DNA of 64,000 nt. Origin: Pirellulales bacterium (GTDB taxonomy: Bacteria; Planctomycetota; Planctomycetia; Pirellulales; JBBRCE01). Position 1 is the first letter of the stretch, and each line of letters begins with the position of its first letter. A program made the translations under genes and the position numbers. The notes below the pieces were generated by a model. That model worked only from the letters and a program-made list of their open reading frames with translations, ran no database searches and was not told the origin of the DNA. Shown here in pieces: positions 12,894 through 52,811 of this stretch. The stretch covers positions 79,754-143,753 of the forward strand of contig JBBRCE010000005.1 in NCBI GenBank assembly GCA_038205115.1, given 5' to 3'.

Positions 12894-12968
12894 TGACCCC
12901 GACGGGATTTGAACCCGTGTTATCGGCGTGAAAGGCCGGTGTCCTAGACCAGGCTAGACGACGGGGCC
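12894..12968 (-). tRNA. tRNA-Glu (anticodon UUC); CCA not encoded
   Basis: Minus strand reads GGCCCCGTCGTCTAGCCTGGTCTAGGACACCGGCCTTTCACGCCGATAACACGGGTTCAAATCCCGTCGGGGTCA: acceptor stem, D-loop GG, CT-TTC-AC anticodon loop, GGTTCAAATCC T-arm. Confidence 0.97.
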
Positions 12969-36820: not shown

Positions 36821-37807
36821 CTAGGGCGTCGATTTCAGTTGCCAGCGCCCGAGCGTGGCCTTTAACGTCAACGTCTCGACGGGGTCGTTACGCTGCACGA
36901 CGATGGTGGCCGTTTCTTTGGGCTCTTTTTTGGCGATTTCTTTGGTCAGCGAATCGAAGTCGGTCACTTCGGCGCCGTCGAACTTAACGATCAGATCGCC
37001 CGTGACGATGCCGGCCTTTTCGGCGGCCGAGCCGGGTTGAACGGTGCTGACGCGACAGCCCGGCACGCCGGGCATGGGGCCGATTCCAAGCAGCGCGCCC
37101 TTCCGCCAATCGACCGTGGCGCCGGTTGCCGCGGCGATTTTCTGCGCGGTTTTTTCGTCCAGCCCGCTGCCATAAAGCTGAATTTTATTGACGCCGCGCA
37201 GCTTCATCAGCATGGCCACCGCTTCGTCATCCAACCGCAGCGACCAAATGCAAAGCAGTTCGAAGTCGCCCAGCCGCGTCAATTGTTGAAGGCCGGCATT
37301 TCCGCCACGCCACTCGTCGTCGAGAATCACCTGCACTTGTTCTTGCATTTCCACGTTCAGACGCGATAAGCGGACATCTCCACCTAGGCGTTGGATCTCG
37401 GCCTTGGCTTGCTGCTGACGCACAACGGCGTGATGCCGCAGAATATCGCGCGCGGTAGATGCCGCCAGCCCTGCGGCCTGGTCGCGGATAGCGAACAATG
37501 CAGTCTCGGCGGCGGTACTCAACGTTGCGTCGTCAACCGAATCCGCCATTTCACCCAGCGCTTGCAGCGAGCGCCAACTAGCTTCCGGACTCTTGCCCAC
37601 CGCGGCCTGCTGCAAGGGGTTGACGGCGGCAGCTCCCGCCGCCGCCAGGCATTTGGTGGCTTGCTCGCGCACCGAGTAATCGTCGGCGTCGATCTCGGTG
37701 ATCCAGCGTTTTACGCTGCCAGCCGACGCTGGAGTGTCACCGCGCGTGGAATCGTTGCCGAGTACCACGCCGAGCACAACGGCAATCCCTCCTAGCCACC
37801 TGAGCAT
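36821..37807 (-). CDS. Secreted HEAT-like/LRR-like/PDZ protein (paralog 2)
   Basis: Same architecture; GALLG...VQPGSAAEKAGI..GDLI. Confidence 0.8.
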   Translation of the reverse strand: MLRWLGGIAVVLGVVLGNDSTRGDTPASAGSVKRWITEIDADDYSVREQATKCLAAAGAAAVNPLQQAAVGKSPEASWRSLQALGEMADSVDDATLSTAAETALFAIRDQAAGLAASTARDILRHHAVVRQQQAKAEIQRLGGDVRLSRLNVEMQEQVQVILDDEWRGGNAGLQQLTRLGDFELLCIWSLRLDDEAVAMLMKLRGVNKIQLYGSGLDEKTAQKIAAATGATVDWRKGALLGIGPMPGVPGCRVSTVQPGSAAEKAGIVTGDLIVKFDGAEVTDFDSLTKEIAKKEPKETATIVVQRNDPVETLTLKATLGRWQLKSTP

Positions 37808-46909: not shown

Positions 46910-47488
46910 ATGTCGTCTGCCACAATGCCCGCCAATCGGTTGTTCACATTTGCCGGTGTCGCTGCCGGCACATGGCGCGTCGATGCCGTTCGGCCGATCG
47001 TCGGTGAGTCGCTGCCGCAGGTCAATTTCGTGAATATGCTGGGCGAAACCGTGCCCACGCCAACCACGGCGGTATGGTTGCTCCGCGGCATTGTCAGTAA
47101 TGAGCGCTACGTGACCCGCGCGGAAAAAACAGAACTCGTCAACAAACAGCAGGGCCTCGGCCGCGCGGATTCCACCCGCGCCGCGCTGATTCCCATCCGC
47201 AAATCGCCCGCCTGGTGGGGCCTAACCCAAGACGAGCGTCGCGCGGTACTGGAAGAACAATCGCAGCACATTAAGATCGGCCTGAAATATCTGCCGGCTA
47301 TTGCTCGGCGGCTGCATCACTGTCGCGACCTCGGACCAGGCGAGCCGTTCGACTTTTTAACGTGGTTCGAGTTCGCGCCGCAAGACGCGCCGGCGTTCGA
47401 TGAATTGGCCGCCGCTTTGCGCGAATCACCGGAATGGAAATTCATCGATCGCGAAGTCGATATCCGCCTCTCGCGTGATGCGGCGTAG
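46910..47488 (+). CDS. cld: Chlorite dismutase, short (clade-2/dimeric) type
   Basis: W.LRG..S..RYV.RAEK, AALIPIRKS.AWW.LTQDERR, HI...LKYLPAIAR.L.HCRD, EPFDFLTWFE, EW....REVDIRL with the distal catalytic Arg. By recall it closely resembles Nitrobacter-type short Cld. Confidence 0.9.
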   Translation: MSSATMPANRLFTFAGVAAGTWRVDAVRPIVGESLPQVNFVNMLGETVPTPTTAVWLLRGIVSNERYVTRAEKTELVNKQQGLGRADSTRAALIPIRKSPAWWGLTQDERRAVLEEQSQHIKIGLKYLPAIARRLHHCRDLGPGEPFDFLTWFEFAPQDAPAFDELAAALRESPEWKFIDREVDIRLSRDAA

Positions 47489-47534
47489 CCGTCTGGAATT
47501 GCCGTTTCCACGTTCAACCGAATCGATACGCCCC

Positions 47535-48830
47535 ATGCTCCTGATGAGTTGCCCGCCGCGACACATATTGCGTGCCCTGCCGATCATGATCGTGGCGCTG
47601 GCCGGCGTCTCTGCTGCGCGCGGCCAAGAGAACATCGCGCTCTCGGGGCCGACGATGGGTGCCACCTATCACATCAAGTTGGCTCGGTTGCCCGCCGGAC
47701 TCACTGCCGGCGCTCTGCAGGCAAAAGTCGAAACGCTGCTGGCGAATCTGGATGCTCAACTTTCGACTTATCGCCCCGACTCGGAATTGTCGCGGTTTAA
47801 TCGCAGCCCCAGCACCGATTGGTTTGCAGTCTCGCCCGCGCTGGCGGACGTCGTACAGCTTTCGCTCGATATTTCCGCGCGCTCCGGTGGCGCGTTCGAT
47901 GTCACCGTCGCGCCGCTGGTCCAACTCTGGGGTTTCGGCCGCCAGAACGGTCTGCCGCGAATTCCCAGCGACGCGGAGATCGCCACGGCCAAGCAATCCG
48001 TCGGCTGGCAAATGCTCGATGTGCGTCGGCATCCGCCGGCGCTGAAAAAATCGCGGCCGGAGCTACGTGTCGATCTGAATGGCATTGCCGGCTTTGCGGT
48101 GGATCGGTTGCAAGCCTTGTTCGATTCGCAAGGGATTCACGACGATCTGATTGAACTCGGCGGCGAAATGTTCGTCTCCGGCCATAGCGCCAGCGGTCAG
48201 GCGTGGCGAGTTGGCATCGAACAACCGGACGAGCGCCAAGTGGCGCTGCAAATGACGATTGGTTTCGATGCCGGTGGTTTTTCCGTCAGCGGCGACTACC
48301 GGCACTTTTATGAGCGCGATGGCCGCCGCTATTCGCACATCATCGATCCGGCCCGTGGTTGGCCCATTCGTTATCGCGGCGTGGCCTTGGCGGTTGCCGC
48401 CGAAAGTTGCGCCCAGGCAGACGCGTGGACCAAGCCGCTGCTGATTCTTGGCCCCGAGCAAGGCCTGAAACGGGCAGACGAACTGGGGCTGGCAGCTTGC
48501 TTTGTGCTGCGTGATGACGACGACGCCCGCCCCGGCGCGGAATCTCCGCAACCGTCATCCGCGCCATACCACTTCCTCGTCCGCGCTTCGAAAAACTTTC
48601 AGCGACGATTTCTGGCCGGCGACGCGCCTGCAGCCTCGCCCGTGTCATCGCCGGCGGAATCATCATTGCCGCCGGCTCGAAACCTCGCAATCACGAATCC
48701 ACCCGCCGGTCCGTTACTGGCGCAACAGCCGCCCGAAAACAAACCGCTACTGTGGGCGGCCGTTGGGCTGTGCATCGCTGCCTACGTCGGCATGCGTCTC
48801 TGGCGCCGCCGCGAACCGCCGCCCGACTAG
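47535..48830 (+). CDS. apbE: FAD:protein FMN transferase, atypical
   Basis: G.TMG.TY.I, STYRPDSELSRFN, GAFDVTV.PLV.LWG, ELGGE, WRVGIE.P, SGDY, SHIIDP; C-terminal TM. Confidence 0.88.
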   Translation: MLLMSCPPRHILRALPIMIVALAGVSAARGQENIALSGPTMGATYHIKLARLPAGLTAGALQAKVETLLANLDAQLSTYRPDSELSRFNRSPSTDWFAVSPALADVVQLSLDISARSGGAFDVTVAPLVQLWGFGRQNGLPRIPSDAEIATAKQSVGWQMLDVRRHPPALKKSRPELRVDLNGIAGFAVDRLQALFDSQGIHDDLIELGGEMFVSGHSASGQAWRVGIEQPDERQVALQMTIGFDAGGFSVSGDYRHFYERDGRRYSHIIDPARGWPIRYRGVALAVAAESCAQADAWTKPLLILGPEQGLKRADELGLAACFVLRDDDDARPGAESPQPSSAPYHFLVRASKNFQRRFLAGDAPAASPVSSPAESSLPPARNLAITNPPAGPLLAQQPPENKPLLWAAVGLCIAAYVGMRLWRRREPPPD

Positions 48831-49204
48831 AGCCGATAGCGCACCGGTCTGACAATCCTCTGCAGCCATCCAGCATATTCCTTGATGGACGCATGATGTC
48901 GCGGCGAATTTTGTGAGCGACCTTACCGCGAAACCTGACGATCCCAAGTACGCGCTTATTCCATTCTCGATGCTCTTTCGCCTCTTGCGCTGGCGACGTG
49001 GATCTTCCAGGGCCCACCGCACTCCGAGGTCCGCGCCCCGTTTCAGTAGCGCGTTGCTACTGGCGCAATTCAGCGGCAATTGACCTTAAGAGAGCGCTGG
49101 GCGCAAATTCAGGCGCTACAGTCTCACATCGGCATGGCTGCTGAAACGGACGATTCGCGACCGTTGTGGCGAGTCGGCAAGTCTTTCCGGAGCAATTCGC
49201 GCCG

Positions 49205-49240
49205 TTGACTTTCGCGCCAAATATGGTATACTAAAGTACA
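49205..49240 (+). promoter_or_regulatory. Near-consensus sigma70 promoter with overlapping palindromic operator
   Basis: TTGACT-N16-TATACT with extended -10 TG; TATAC-TAAA-GTACA (49227-49240) overlaps -10 and the predicted start site. Confidence 0.65.
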
Positions 49241-49390
49241 CATATCTCGCGGGCGGAAGGTCCGCCCAATGCGGGACAACGGATTTGAGGCCAACCCAGG
49301 GCTCTGACAACTCAGCGTGCAAAGGCAGGCACAGCACCCGACGGAAAACCGAGTTCGCAGCATTCAGGCGTACGGCTCTTCACTCCGCGT
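49240..49390 (+). ncRNA. Candidate structured small RNA (family not recognised)
   Basis: Follows the strong promoter between convergent genes. Stems: TCTCGC/GCGGGA enclosing GGGCGG-AAGGT-CCGCCC; GTGC/GCAC; AACTC/GAGTT. No ORF longer than 12 codons near the start. Confidence 0.45.
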
Positions 49391-49437
49391 CTCCCTTCGC
49401 CCCGGTACTCCGGGGAGAAGGGCCGGGGATGAGAGGC
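49391..49437. repeat. REP-like palindromic element
   Basis: CCCTTCGCCCCGG-TACT-CCGGGGAGAAGGG hairpin (one mismatch) followed by CCGGGGATGAGAGG, resembling the common GGGAGAGGG..GGG.TGAGGG intergenic repeats. Confidence 0.7.
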
Positions 49438-50022
49438 TGAGTTGACGATCTGTCAACGCGAGTGCGTTGTTGAGCAATCAACGCTGCGAACGAGATTGTT
49501 CCGCGCGGCAATTCGCCGGCATTTGCATGAGACTGGTGGCAGGAGATGTCGCGTGGATGGTTTGCTAGACAAAAGTAGGTTCGCCGGTGCGCTGGCGAGT
49601 CGAAATCGAACCGACACGCGGCCGCAGTAAATAGCCGAATCCCCGTTGCAGCTCTTTGACAACTTAACCGGCGGTCGCTTGCGCCCAAGCAGCCTGGCGA
49701 CCGCTCACACACTCCGATTTGCGAAAGTGCGATTCGGCGCGTAGCGCTTTGCGCTTGCGCGCCGGGGCAGGAAAATTGCCCCTTCGCAGCGAAGCAAATC
49801 GGAGTGGCCAGCCTGCGGTCCGCGCCGAAGCGGTAGAAAAAGTGCATCTCCGGCGCGTTCTGTCCTCACTGTCCACTACGATTTTCGAGGTCAAAACCGT
49901 TGCCAAGTTGTTACGCTCAGCAACGTTACAAGTGAGCACCGCACGCGCCGGCAGGAATTTCTTTTCCGTCAGCTAAGCGCCGTTTCTTCGCCTTGGCCGC
50001 TCTCGATTGTTTTGGCTCGTCG

Positions 50023-52614
50023 TTAATCGCGCAGCGTGCCGCGCGTTACGCCCAACTGGTTGAGCACGTTAAGCTGCCGCCAAACGCTTTTGCCGACCTC
50101 TTGCCCGGCCAGCAACCGGGCGTAGCGATCCAACAGCGATGCGGTTTCGGTGGGAGTTTCGCGCAGCAGTTCCACGCGAAAATGTCGCACGCCCAGCTTT
50201 TGCATGCGACTGATGTATTCGGCCGCCGATTGAGCCACGGCGTTGAAGACCGTGTTGCGGCAGCCAGTATCGGCCAAGAGCGGAAATGCCGAACCGGTGG
50301 CGCGATCGCGCAGTTCCACCCGGTGATGATCGCAGGGGCGGCCGCAATCGCGATGATCTTTGCCGTCGGACAAGACAGCCGCAAACACACAGTGCTCCAT
50401 ATGGAACATCGGCATGTGTTGATGAACCACGGCTTCGAACCAGCCGGCATCAAACTGCCCGAGCATGGCCGACATCTGCTCCCAACTCAGATCGTAGCTG
50501 GGCGTGAGCCGCGACAAACCCTGGCTGGCAAAGAAATCGGCCGTTAGTTCGTTGGCAATGTTTAACGAATAATCGCCAATCCGTTTGATGTGCGACGCCT
50601 GCTCGCGGAAAAACGCCAGACCCGCCAGGTTGCGAATCAACACGGCGTCGGCGCCGGCTTGAGCGATTTTTGTCAGCAAACCATCTTCGCCGGGCTTGAT
50701 GATTCGCAGCGTCGCCAGTGCAATGGGCAGCTCGGCCGCGCGCGCTCGCTCGACGGCCTCGCGATACCGGCGCACGTCTTCGAAGTCGCAGTAAACCATC
50801 GTCGGCCGCACAATGCCCGCTTCGCCGCGCCAAGCCAGCACCGCATCCAGTTGTTCGAGCGAACGCACCAGCACGTAAAGTTGTGCGCTGCCGGGCAACT
50901 CCGCCGCGGCAACGCAATTGTCTGTCGCCGGCAAACACTGTTTGGCACCGCGCCGTAATTCGTCCAAAGCCAGCGGATGAATGTTGCGTTGACGCAACTC
51001 GCGGGCCTGCAGTTCGACCAGCGCGGTTGCCGCGCGACGACGCAAATCGTTGAGCACGCTTTTTGGAGTCATGGCCGTGGACGGCAAGTCGAGTTGCAAG
51101 CCAGCCAGCTCGAACGGCGTATCGCCCAGCCGGCCAAGTTGTTCGCCAATTGCCTCGGGCGAAAGCGGCTGCGAACGCGCCGCTTCCAGCGGTCCCGGCC
51201 AACTGACCGAAACCACGCGTCCCAACGCATCGCTTAACTGCAATGTCAGCGGCTCGCCCAACTGCCCTGCAAGCCGCGCGTGAACGGGTTGGCGAACAGT
51301 TGGCAGATCGCGGGCATAGCTCGACTCCAAGCGCTTACGCAACGCCGGATCATCAGTTTTCCAAACAAGGCTGCCAACGCTCACGCGCGAAAGATCGAAT
51401 GTCTCATGGTCGAATTGCAATTCCACATTCAGGCCGCCGGGTTCGCTGCCTGGCCGCATTGGCCCGATGGGTCGATTTCGGCCAGCCACCGCGGTTGGCA
51501 AAAAGTCGGCGGCAAACACGCGCCCGCCAAGCTCTTGCTGCTCGGGCCGACCTTCGTCAAAGCACACGCCATCGCCGGGCTTGACCGCCTCTTGATCTTG
51601 CCCGGCAAGCAGCGAAACCAGCACGCCGCGTCGCGTGCGATCGATCACCTGGCCCAATTGCACGCCGCGACTTTTCGGGAAACGGGCCGGCACGAGAGTC
51701 TGATGATTGATGCCGTCGAGGAATCCGTGCGAAAATCCGCGCGAGAAGGTTTGCGCCAAATCGCGCGCGGCAGCCGGCGCAATTGCGAACTTTTGCTGGT
51801 GCTCGGCGGCTGTGATGGCCGCGCGATAGGTCTGCGTGGTAGCGGCCACGTAATGCGAAGTCTTCAAACGGCCTTCGATTTTCAAACTGCAAACGCCGAG
51901 CTTGACCAGATCGTCGATCAGATCGTGCGCCGCCAAATCCAGCGGACTCAGCAGATAGGCGCGATCGCCCAAGTCGCGCGGCACGCCGTCGACAATCATA
52001 TCATACGGCATGCGGCAGGCTTGTGCGCATTGCCCGCGATTGGCACTGCGGCCGCCGAGCGATTCGCTGGTCAAACACTGCCCGCTGTAGGCCACGCACA
52101 GTGCGCCATGCACGAAAACTTCCAGCGGCATGTCAGTTTGTCCGCGAATCGTGCCGATCTCCAGCAGCGACAGTTCGCGGGCCAGGATCACTCGCTCGAC
52201 GCCCAAGCCGCGAACCAGTTCAATCCCGCGTGCCTCGGTGAGCGTCATTTGCGTCGAACCATGAATGGGCAGGTCCGGCGCCAAGTGGCGAATCAAACGG
52301 GCCAGTCCCAAATCTTGCACGATGATGGCGTCGATACCTGCGGCCACGGCTTGCGAAATAGCCTGCACCGCGTCGGGCAATTCATCCGAAAAAATCAGCG
52401 TGTTGAACGCCACGTAACCGCGGACGTTGCGGTCGTGCAAAAACGCCATCACCTCGGGCAATTCTTCGGCCGTAAAGTTGGTGGCGCGATAGCGTGCCGA
52501 ATAGTTGGGCAGGCCAAAGTAAACGGCGTCGGCACCGTTGGCTGCCGCGGCGCGCAGGCAGTCCCAGTCGCCAGCCGGGGCGAGGAGTTCGGGAGTCGAA
52601 GCAGAGCGATTCAA
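50023..52614 (-). CDS. Peptidase U32 family Fe-S hydroxylase, long RlhA-like form
   Basis: ELLAPAG, GADAVY.G, H.STQ, HGALCVAYSGQC, NRGQCAQACR, LKIEGR; C-terminal U32-like half. Start uncertain (TTG 52614 or ATG 52683). Confidence 0.88.
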   Translation of the reverse strand: MNRSASTPELLAPAGDWDCLRAAAANGADAVYFGLPNYSARYRATNFTAEELPEVMAFLHDRNVRGYVAFNTLIFSDELPDAVQAISQAVAAGIDAIIVQDLGLARLIRHLAPDLPIHGSTQMTLTEARGIELVRGLGVERVILARELSLLEIGTIRGQTDMPLEVFVHGALCVAYSGQCLTSESLGGRSANRGQCAQACRMPYDMIVDGVPRDLGDRAYLLSPLDLAAHDLIDDLVKLGVCSLKIEGRLKTSHYVAATTQTYRAAITAAEHQQKFAIAPAAARDLAQTFSRGFSHGFLDGINHQTLVPARFPKSRGVQLGQVIDRTRRGVLVSLLAGQDQEAVKPGDGVCFDEGRPEQQELGGRVFAADFLPTAVAGRNRPIGPMRPGSEPGGLNVELQFDHETFDLSRVSVGSLVWKTDDPALRKRLESSYARDLPTVRQPVHARLAGQLGEPLTLQLSDALGRVVSVSWPGPLEAARSQPLSPEAIGEQLGRLGDTPFELAGLQLDLPSTAMTPKSVLNDLRRRAATALVELQARELRQRNIHPLALDELRRGAKQCLPATDNCVAAAELPGSAQLYVLVRSLEQLDAVLAWRGEAGIVRPTMVYCDFEDVRRYREAVERARAAELPIALATLRIIKPGEDGLLTKIAQAGADAVLIRNLAGLAFFREQASHIKRIGDYSLNIANELTADFFASQGLSRLTPSYDLSWEQMSAMLGQFDAGWFEAVVHQHMPMFHMEHCVFAAVLSDGKDHRDCGRPCDHHRVELRDRATGSAFPLLADTGCRNTVFNAVAQSAAEYISRMQKLGVRHFRVELLRETPTETASLLDRYARLLAGQEVGKSVWRQLNVLNQLGVTRGTLRD

Positions 52615-52733
52615 TGCAATATAACCGTAATAAGCCGAGCGGTGCGCCAAGCCTTTATCGTATCGCAAAACAAGGTATTTCATAAGGGTTCGAGCCTGCC
52701 GACGCCCGGAAACGCTGGGAAAGCAGGCAAAAG

Positions 52734-52811
52734 TTGGCGGATGCGGGCCATTACGCACACGCTCGCTTGGCGGATGCGGGCCATTATGCACGCGCTCGCT
52801 TGGCGAAATGC
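52734..52811. repeat. 33-bp tandem repeat, two full copies plus a partial third
   Basis: TTGGCGGATGCGGGCCATTACGCACACGCTCGC / TTGGCGGATGCGGGCCATTATGCACGCGCTCGC / TTGGCGAAATGC. Confidence 0.9.

Follow-up and report, generated by a model that had tools for sequence, protein, structure and literature searches.

A Dispersed, Promoter-Bearing Repeat Family of a Pirellulales Genome and the Large Structured RNA Predicted from It

The Locus

The window considered in this work is a stretch of 64,000 nucleotides from a Pirellulales bacterium (assembly GCA_038205115.1, contig JBBRCE010000005.1, positions 79,754 to 143,753 of the forward strand); positions given below without a contig name are those of the window. 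It contains a convergent gap of 1,192 bp between an ApbE-family gene (plus strand, 47400-48830) and a Peptidase_U32 gene (minus strand, 50023-52791). The gene calls agree in this respect with the initial annotation of the window, which had described apbE and U32 genes flanking a gap of about 1.2 kb, and which had placed in that gap an orphan promoter with an operator, driving a stand-alone RNA of about 150 nt. It was found that the segment 49196-49966 is one copy of a dispersed repeat family that lacks open reading frames (ORFs). The locus is therefore no orphan, since a search of its own genome with 49190-49450 gave 42 matches. The unit opens with a near-consensus sigma-70 promoter and continues into a block that is predicted to specify a large RNA.

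The Repeat Family

The genome is a metagenome-assembled genome (MAG) of 5.44 Mb in 119 contigs. When the entire gap was compared with it by BLAST, the similarity among copies began at about 49195 and stopped at about 49930-49966. Chaining of the matches gave 51 loci, and besides the window's own 38 of them measure at least 300 bp; the central block matched 42 times (nhmmer) and the 5' block 37 times (BLAST with 49242-49300). The element is 0.5-0.96 kb long across copies and roughly 0.8 kb in the window. A self-comparison of the genome showed that repeated DNA amounts to only 66.7 kb, of which this family is the main component. About two dozen contig ends are located inside element copies, and the family accounts for many of the contig breaks of this MAG. 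The summed contig depth in two metagenome runs was 390-1,076 in the interior of the element against about 10 in the unique flanks, which suggests a copy number of about 40-100, summed contig depth being a rough measure. Among the contigs of these two runs no joint was found that skips the whole element and would mark an empty site.

The near-full copies are intergenic in 24 of 24 cases, as judged by crude ORF calls. In 19 of the 24 the element and the ORF downstream of it face each other, and 11 of 21 upstream ORFs run in the same direction as the element. No sequence outside the unit is common to the copies (36 loci), and no recurrent protein family was found in their 3-kb flanks. The copies differ considerably from one another: over the whole length the median pairwise identity is 0.77 and the highest 0.937. 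No pair is closer than 94%, a figure to be read with the caveat that short-read assembly would merge near-identical copies. If the family were read window by window, it would be mis-annotated as some 40 separate "orphan promoters" or small RNAs (sRNAs).

About seven copies of the element are immediately preceded by another small repeat, which consists of GAACGCAGATG-type units set in inverted orientation. Its positions include C11:57080-57235, C14:16985-17148 and C2:99938-100119, and it occurs alone at C6:59150-59365.

The Promoter

The left border of the unit is a GCGCCG block (49196-49204, plus strand, as all features of the element given here) just 5' of the -35 hexamer, and it is here that the similarity between copies starts. 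Of the 35 left ends listed, most have the triplet CCG immediately 5' of TTGAC, and in many copies the border is preceded by GCCG-TTTTT, an UP-like T-tract that the window copy does not have. The promoter of the initial annotation, TTGACT-N16-TATACT at 49205-49232 with TG ahead of the -10 hexamer, was recovered as the sole sigma-70-like site in the gap, the consensus scan giving one site against a mean of 0.3 in shuffled sequences. It matches the sigma-70 consensus at 10 of 12 positions, its activity being a prediction. The TG of the supposed extended -10 element is present in the window copy and absent from three other copies scanned. The proposed operator was not borne out, no inverted repeat of at least 10 nt being found at the promoter.

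The comparison of the copies showed where this promoter is held constant and where it is free. The -35 hexamer (49205-49210; mean pairwise identity 0.94) reads TTGACT in 32 of 37 copies, TTGACA in two, and TTGATT, TTGACC and TTGCCA in one each. The -10 hexamer (49227-49232; pairwise identity 0.99), which always has a G on its 5' side, reads TATACT in 36 copies and TATAAT in one. The spacer between them, 16 nt in the window copy (49211-49226), measures 17 nt in 25 copies and 16 nt in the remaining 12, and its mean pairwise identity is 0.52; this value is independent of the RNA body and remains at about 0.5 even where the central cores are at least 97% identical. The pattern TTGNNN-N16/17-TANNNT stands in register in all 37 of the 5' blocks that have upstream sequence, and both hexamers are retained even by three outlying copies whose identity to the window copy is 75-85%. 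The hexamers are thus preserved, by selection or by homogenisation, and with them an RNA-type scheme of base pairing, while the spacers and the loops of the RNA drift. From the promoter geometry the transcription start is predicted at 49239-49240, 7-8 nt past the -10 hexamer, and the high conservation of the transcribed block sets in near this point.

Such promoters are a peculiarity of the family within its genome. All 32 genome-wide sites of TTGACT-N16-17-TATACT lie in it, as do 34 of the 43 sites of a looser near-consensus pattern, so that the copies contain about 80% of the near-consensus sigma-70 promoters of the genome. The form TTGACT-N16-17-GTATACT was counted 21 times in this genome against at most five times in each of 400 same-order genomes, 33 of which have it at all.

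In one related genome (G004) four to five near-identical TTGACT-N-GTATACT promoter-like sites were observed. About 100 nt of unrelated sequence come next and hold a 30-nt unit, which at other places forms tandem repeats of about 49 nt period. Beyond these 100 nt stands a multi-copy element of 100% identity, located at contig ends. The sites were considered as an analogous promoter-bearing repeat and rejected, the downstream sequence being unrelated and broken by another repeat.

Coding Potential

The element does not behave as a protein-coding sequence. Relative to the window copy, frameshifting indels are present within 49463-49775 in 34 of 35 copies, and the variable columns are spread over the codon positions as 12/14/11. 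The longest ORF inside the element (155 aa, minus strand) has no Pfam match. The 12-codon ORF that had been proposed as a possible leader peptide (49269-49307, plus strand) is not conserved as an ORF: of the 25 aligned copies, 12 have ATG at its start and the other 13 have ACG. The same T-to-C change at 49270 is found in one of the metagenome runs (X1), in which the C variant makes up 624 of 979 of the summed contig depth. A protein-coding gene or leader peptide was accordingly rejected on the frameshifts, the lack of codon periodicity, the unconserved start codon and the missing Pfam match. The functional product would then be an RNA rather than a peptide.

Structure of the Predicted RNA

The conservation along the unit is strongly uneven, the pairwise identity being 0.90-0.95 in the 5' block, 0.87-0.88 in the central core and 0.41-0.55 in the variable segments. 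Segment-wise identities correlate between neighbouring segments only, from which it follows that the copies are mosaics. The RNAalifold consensus of 28 copies is a multi-domain fold. Its helices were examined by pair counting over 115 pairs of the well-aligned part, on an alignment of 25 copies. Standard pairs occupy 97.0% of the cells, compared to 29.6-38.7% when the partners are slid by one to three columns. Fourteen pairs are changed on both sides, against 6.4 +/- 1.7 in shuffles, none of 500 shuffles reaching 14, and the covariation score is 0.083 against 0.067 in shuffles (0 of 500).

The 5' block (49242-49330) is almost invariant among the copies. It begins with a hairpin at 49245-49276, composed of a 6-bp lower stem, a 3-nt bulge on the 3' side, an upper stem of 6-7 bp and a variable loop. 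This is the first hairpin of the initial annotation, TCTCGC/GCGGGA closing GGGCGG/CCGCCC, and it was confirmed: its helices are 100% paired in 25 of 25 copies, one pair is changed on both sides from GC to AU in three copies, and the lower stem shows a C-G to U-A change in one outlying copy. The strand that follows (49277-49330) is engaged in long-range pairing in the RNAalifold consensus, by the helices 49277-49287/49636-49648, 49290-49303/49530-49540 and 49316-49330/49515-49529, and it also carries a local hairpin at 49304-49315. These helices are 95-100% paired, and the outlying copies show register-shifted compensation. The 5' region is thus paired with sequence 200-350 nt downstream.

These pairings and the extent of the unit are at variance with an RNA of about 150 nt, because the conserved sequence reaches to about 49966 and the partners of the 5' region lie at 49515-49540 and 49636-49648. 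Of the stems drawn earlier, only the hairpin 49245-49276 agrees with the consensus fold. The local stems GAG(G)CC/GGCTC, AACTC/GAGTT and GTGC/GCAC are 95% paired and near-invariant; five of the 25 copies lack the partner of GAGTT, and an equal score was reached by 34 of 500 shuffles, so that these stems could not be upheld.

The variable arm (49338-49508) is built on the helix 49338-49361/49483-49508 of 19 bp, 13 pairs of which show double changes; in the RNAalifold alignment 27 further pair types appear. The arm is dispensable, being wholly deleted in four short-form copies (L021, L029, L041 and L053). Its loop holds an optional expansion segment (49370-49462, about 90 nt), which some 10 of the 24 aligned copies possess, and within this segment lies the hairpin 49391-49422, which had been taken for a REP-like (repetitive extragenic palindrome) structure defining the 3' end. 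The sequence CCCCGG..CCGGGG of that hairpin occurs 11 times in the genome, in all 11 cases within copies of the element, and it belongs to an optional internal segment instead of a terminus. In copy L036 (C41:9046-9161) the expansion segment contains a compound microsatellite in which (GCAATCT)n gives way to (GCAGTGT)n.

The central core (49522-49714) is the most conserved block, with a mean column identity of 86% in an alignment of 34 copies. Double changes were counted as three in the helix 49548-49564/49607-49622, four in the hairpin 49578-49601 and none in the hairpin 49673-49702. In copy L053 (contig C8) a separate 100-nt hairpin is inserted in this core. The 3' domain (49703-49830) consists of a 13-bp helix (49710-49722/49794-49806), fully complementary in the window copy, which encloses a hairpin at 49735-49764; two double changes were found in the former and four in the latter. 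About ten other copies carry a second optional insertion, of about 200 nt, at the place of 49775/49786.

Downstream of these domains a 17-nt motif, CTGTCCTCACTGTCCAC, is conserved at 49860-49876 (27 copies). It is flanked on the 5' side by a hypervariable stretch of about 35 nt (identity 0.55) and on the 3' side by the first T-tract (49881-49886). The variable tail that follows (49887-49966) contains a small covarying hairpin and then the terminal A/T-tract, which is AATTTCTTTT at 49956-49965 in the window copy and reads AAAAACTTTTTT in the majority of copies; here the element has its right border and the RNA its presumed 3' end. T-tracts are conserved at two places near the 3' border. A simple scan of the window copy and three others called no canonical hairpin-plus-T terminator on the plus strand at either of them.

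On this evidence the reading of the locus as one sRNA standing alone, about 150-200 nt long, or as a leader-peptide RNA specific to this gap, is refuted as stated and has next to no probability. In its favour, the promoter and the first hairpin are real and the search against known families was null; it does not accommodate the 40 or more copies, the conservation and pairing over about 700 nt, the ATG found in just 12 of 25 copies and a proposed 3' hairpin that turned out to be an optional internal segment. What stands of the earlier proposal is its more general part, an undescribed, non-coding, foldable RNA with a strong promoter, because the promoter is found in 37 of 37 copies, the helices covary and no Rfam family matches.

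Comparison with Known RNA Families

The sequences were compared with the 4227 models of Rfam 15. In the gap only three chance-level matches of 10-17 bits were obtained at E<=10, in agreement with the earlier suggestion of a possibly undescribed RNA. At gathering thresholds the whole window gave only a tRNA, and 12 other copies gave at E<=5 only a spurious microRNA match on a microsatellite. RNase P RNA is encoded once in the genome, away from the element, and a replacement of this housekeeping RNA was rejected for that reason. The Rfam model of 6S RNA finds nothing in the genome, but it matches only 5 of 14 controls. Because the majority of near-consensus sigma-70 promoters lie in the element, a link to the economy of polymerase or sigma factor is conceivable. 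A full-text literature search retrieved no description of such an element.

The RNAs of HEARO, the IscB omega-RNA and the IS200/IS605 elements are large and highly structured, and can occur in dozens of copies per genome, many of them without an ORF. The present family resembles these ORF-less copies as a large structured non-coding RNA within a high-copy repeat, which makes it pertinent to ask about a guide-type RNA serving a trans-acting RNA-guided enzyme of a mobile element (an IscB/TnpB omega-RNA of HEARO type, or an IS110 bridge RNA). The alternation of conserved blocks with hypervariable segments would also suit a guide. The element differs in having no Rfam match at E<=10, the HEARO and IS605-type models being included, no subterminal-hairpin ends, and a conserved sigma-70 promoter in each copy. 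The TnpB zinc-ribbon domain (PF07282) is absent from the assembled genome with control genomes positive, no IscB-specific search having been made, and the same holds for the IS110 DEDD domain (PF01548), absent here and found in the controls. When the variable segments were compared with flanking sequence, the flanks of their own copy showed no greater similarity or complementarity to them than the flanks of other copies did, and a guide RNA was rejected on this ground; moreover, since the RNA has its own promoter and its first nucleotide block is conserved, a guide would find no place at the 5' end. Such an RNA is accordingly considered very unlikely.

An ORF-less or circularly permuted (CP) group II-like ribozyme was weighed in the same manner. 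The size, the multi-domain fold with long-range pairings and the peripheral insertions recall such RNAs, and the 32-nt 5' hairpin with its 3' bulge loosely resembles domain 5. According to PMC8637638, the CP group II ("T-large") RNAs are ORF-less and large, at about 900 nt, and reported from Thermus, Firmicutes and Proteobacteria. With these and with ORF-less group II introns the element shares the absence of an ORF, a length of about 0.6-0.9 kb, several domains, long-range helices and optional peripheral domains; it is set apart from them by its own promoter, which introns do not have, by its 40 or more copies and by its host lineage. The models Intron_gpII (RF00029) and group-II-D1D4 gave no match in the window copy at E<=10 or in 12 other copies at E<=5. 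The 5' hairpin has neither the AGC/CGC triad at its position nor the 2-nt bulge geometry of the domain 5 consensus. The reverse transcriptase domain RVT_1 is absent from the assembled genome, control genomes being positive. The probability of a group II-like ribozyme is therefore put even lower than that of a guide RNA. A retron was likewise rejected, there being no RVT_1 in the genome and no recurrent neighbouring protein.

Among other large bacterial RNAs, OLE, GOLLD, ROOL and raiA are comparable in their size of about 600 nt, their intricate secondary structure and their highly conserved single-stranded blocks. They are single-copy or borne by phages and plasmids, widespread among species and modelled in Rfam, unlike the element, which is multi-copy, found in a single genome and without an Rfam match. 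The cyanobacterial NsiR1 and Yfr2 and the rhizobial "cuckoo" RNAs are paralogous families of 60-150 nt in 2-12 copies, each unit having its own promoter and terminator. The present family is like them in consisting of paralogous non-coding units and unlike them in the length of its RNA, about 600 nt, and in its copy number of about 40-100.

Comparison with Mobile Elements

Correia elements and other miniature inverted-repeat transposable elements (MITEs), as well as REP and REPIN sequences, are 20-160 nt long (MITEs typically below 0.6 kb), with inverted ends and often with target duplications. Like the element they are dispersed and intergenic, and they can carry promoter hexamers, fold into hairpins and be mobilised in trans. 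The element differs from them by its length of 0.5-0.96 kb, by its complex fold of 115 or more pairs, and by its ends. No inverted repeat joins its two termini, and target-site duplication is not apparent, the longest common substring of a copy's own two flanks being 3.75 against 3.92 +/- 1.85 for mismatched flanks (16 copies). A terminal direct repeat, GCGCCG..ACTTTT at both borders, was spotted by eye and is unsupported as a target duplication. The self-comparison of the genome revealed no autonomous relative of greater length sharing the ends of the element, which in a MAG is not proof of its absence. A MITE or another non-autonomous DDE transposon was rejected as a class on these three counts, namely the lack of inverted ends, of target duplications and of an autonomous relative.

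The transposase content of the genome is small. One Y1_Tnp gene (contig C71) and six matches to DDE_Tnp_1 were found, none associated with the element; Y2_Tnp (IS91) had no match in the genome, but none in the controls either. The Y1_Tnp gene, which is IS200-like, is flanked on both sides, at C71:15400-16100, by inverted copies of two hairpins, CAGCCTGGGAC-GAAG-TCCCAGG and GGGCTGAAAGCCC, in an arrangement that resembles REP sequences with their associated tyrosine transposase (RAYT) and is unrelated to the element. No match longer than 15 nt was found between these hairpins and the element. A REP/REPIN-RAYT system was rejected in consequence, since the single RAYT-like gene of the genome, its sole Y1_Tnp gene, has hairpins of another kind.

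The main rival explanation is that the family is a passive non-autonomous DNA transposon, MITE-like or derived from an element of the rolling-circle or single-stranded DNA type, whose promoter and folds are relics of the parent or recognition structures at the DNA level, and whose RNA has no role. The high copy number, the dispersed intergenic positions, the many copies at contig ends and the confinement to one lineage are what such a transposon would leave, and the orientation bias is expected if promoter-carrying insertions are tolerated only when they do not read into genes. It may be added that under the convention of the Breaker laboratory, as given in PMC11109978, multi-copy motifs are classed as mobile/repeat sequence candidates. 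The absence of terminal inverted repeats, of target-site duplication and of a longer element with the same ends speaks against this explanation, as does the scarcity of DDE and Y1 transposase genes, none of them adjacent and the Y1 gene with its own unrelated hairpins. Moreover, a relic promoter should decay, yet all 37 are intact despite a diverged spacer, and the covariation spans 115 pairs and not only the ends. A passive transposon is for these reasons held to be unlikely, although clearly less so than a guide RNA or a group II-like ribozyme.

Searches for Homologues in Other Genomes

No homologue was found by BLAST in 40 genomes of the same order, nor by blastn in plasmids and phages. A covariance model (R1) gave none in 150 same-order and 150 same-phylum genomes; the R1 runs used strict filters, with only 17 candidates scored per genome, and the model, at an effective sequence number of 1.02, is near to a single-sequence model. 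Exact-pattern scans gave 0 and then 2 matches in genome contigs, 0 and then 1 in metagenome contigs and 0 in viral contigs, and the three matches failed R1. Since the pattern scans detect only exact matches, and R1 represents little more than one sequence, the proper wording is that homologues were not found in those genomes searched. In the comparison set the source genome is the sole representative of its GTDB family.

Interpretation

It is reasonably probable that the family is a set of multi-copy, promoter-driven transcription units for a large structured RNA. In each unit the near-consensus promoter TTGACT-N16/17-TATACT would start transcription, in the window copy at about 49239, and the RNA unit of that copy would measure about 0.65-0.73 kb, the product being predicted across copies as a multi-domain RNA of about 0.5-0.75 kb. 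Such an RNA would open with the 5' hairpin, continue into the strand paired at long range to the central core, carry peripheral arms tolerating deletions and insertions, and close with the conserved 17-nt motif and the terminal T-tracts, at one of which transcription may end. A mechanism acting in trans would have copied the whole unit at the DNA level, promoter included, and patchy recombination between copies may have followed.

A mobile origin is argued from the high copy number together with the restriction to one lineage. The family is nevertheless unlike an ordinary MITE, insertion sequence or REP family, because its promoters are all intact, its copies appear old in this assembly and no known signature or enzyme of mobility accompanies it. 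Whether it is, or was, a selfish mobile "RNA gene" or a structural or regulatory RNA serving the host is nearly balanced, with a slight inclination on our part to the former. It is tempting to go further and to regard the family as a new class of large (about 0.6 kb) structured RNA, present as some 40-100 individually promoted copies that are kept by the cell or by the element itself, its RNA being among the most abundant of the cell, acting as a ribozyme, as a scaffold for RNA or ribonucleoprotein, or as a sink for polymerase or sigma factor, and having spread by means other than the known transposase, reverse-transcriptase or RNA-guided systems; this extended proposal is speculative and, taken as a whole, rather improbable.

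Several points weigh against the reading as transcription units for a structured RNA. The structure tested was derived from the same sequences on which it was scored, and the paralogues of one genome are not independent, so that covariation among recombining copies is weaker evidence than covariation across species. Gene conversion confined to the core blocks could mimic purifying selection. The copies are known from one MAG alone, and no outside homologue was found by which long-term conservation could be checked. The sequence was found in two DNA runs of one sediment-metagenome study, with no RNA run among them. Neither a mobilising enzyme nor an insertion polymorphism was found. The apparent lack of recent copies may be an artefact, as near-identical copies collapse in short-read assembly, and the 3' end is a guess, since no canonical intrinsic terminator was called at the T-tracts.

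Few large, highly structured classes of bacterial RNA are known, and each has opened new biology. The family described here is as numerous and as dispersed as a mobile element, and at the same time shows gene-like selection on the promoter of every copy and on a fold of more than 100 bp, a combination that is uncommon. If the RNA is made as predicted, structural and ribozyme studies would gain a new large fold, and the multiplication of a promoter-to-terminator "RNA gene" without a recognisable mobility enzyme could be examined on an actual case.

Other Features of the Window and the Genome

On the minus strand of the window a 95-nt tRNA-Gly(GCC) was called by ARAGORN at 37022-37116. The Rfam tRNA model at its gathering threshold recovered only the tRNA-Glu at 12894-12968, and the putative tRNA-Gly may be spurious, or else a tRNA of unusual or interrupted form.

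The remaining large repeats of the genome, as far as examined, are paralogous genes for very large surface-type proteins rich in Thr, Gly, Ser and Asn. They were located at C50:32382-34838 and C40:1-2298 and on contigs C49 and C86, and the protein on C50 terminates in a PEP-CTERM-like anchor of the form VPEPS...RRR.

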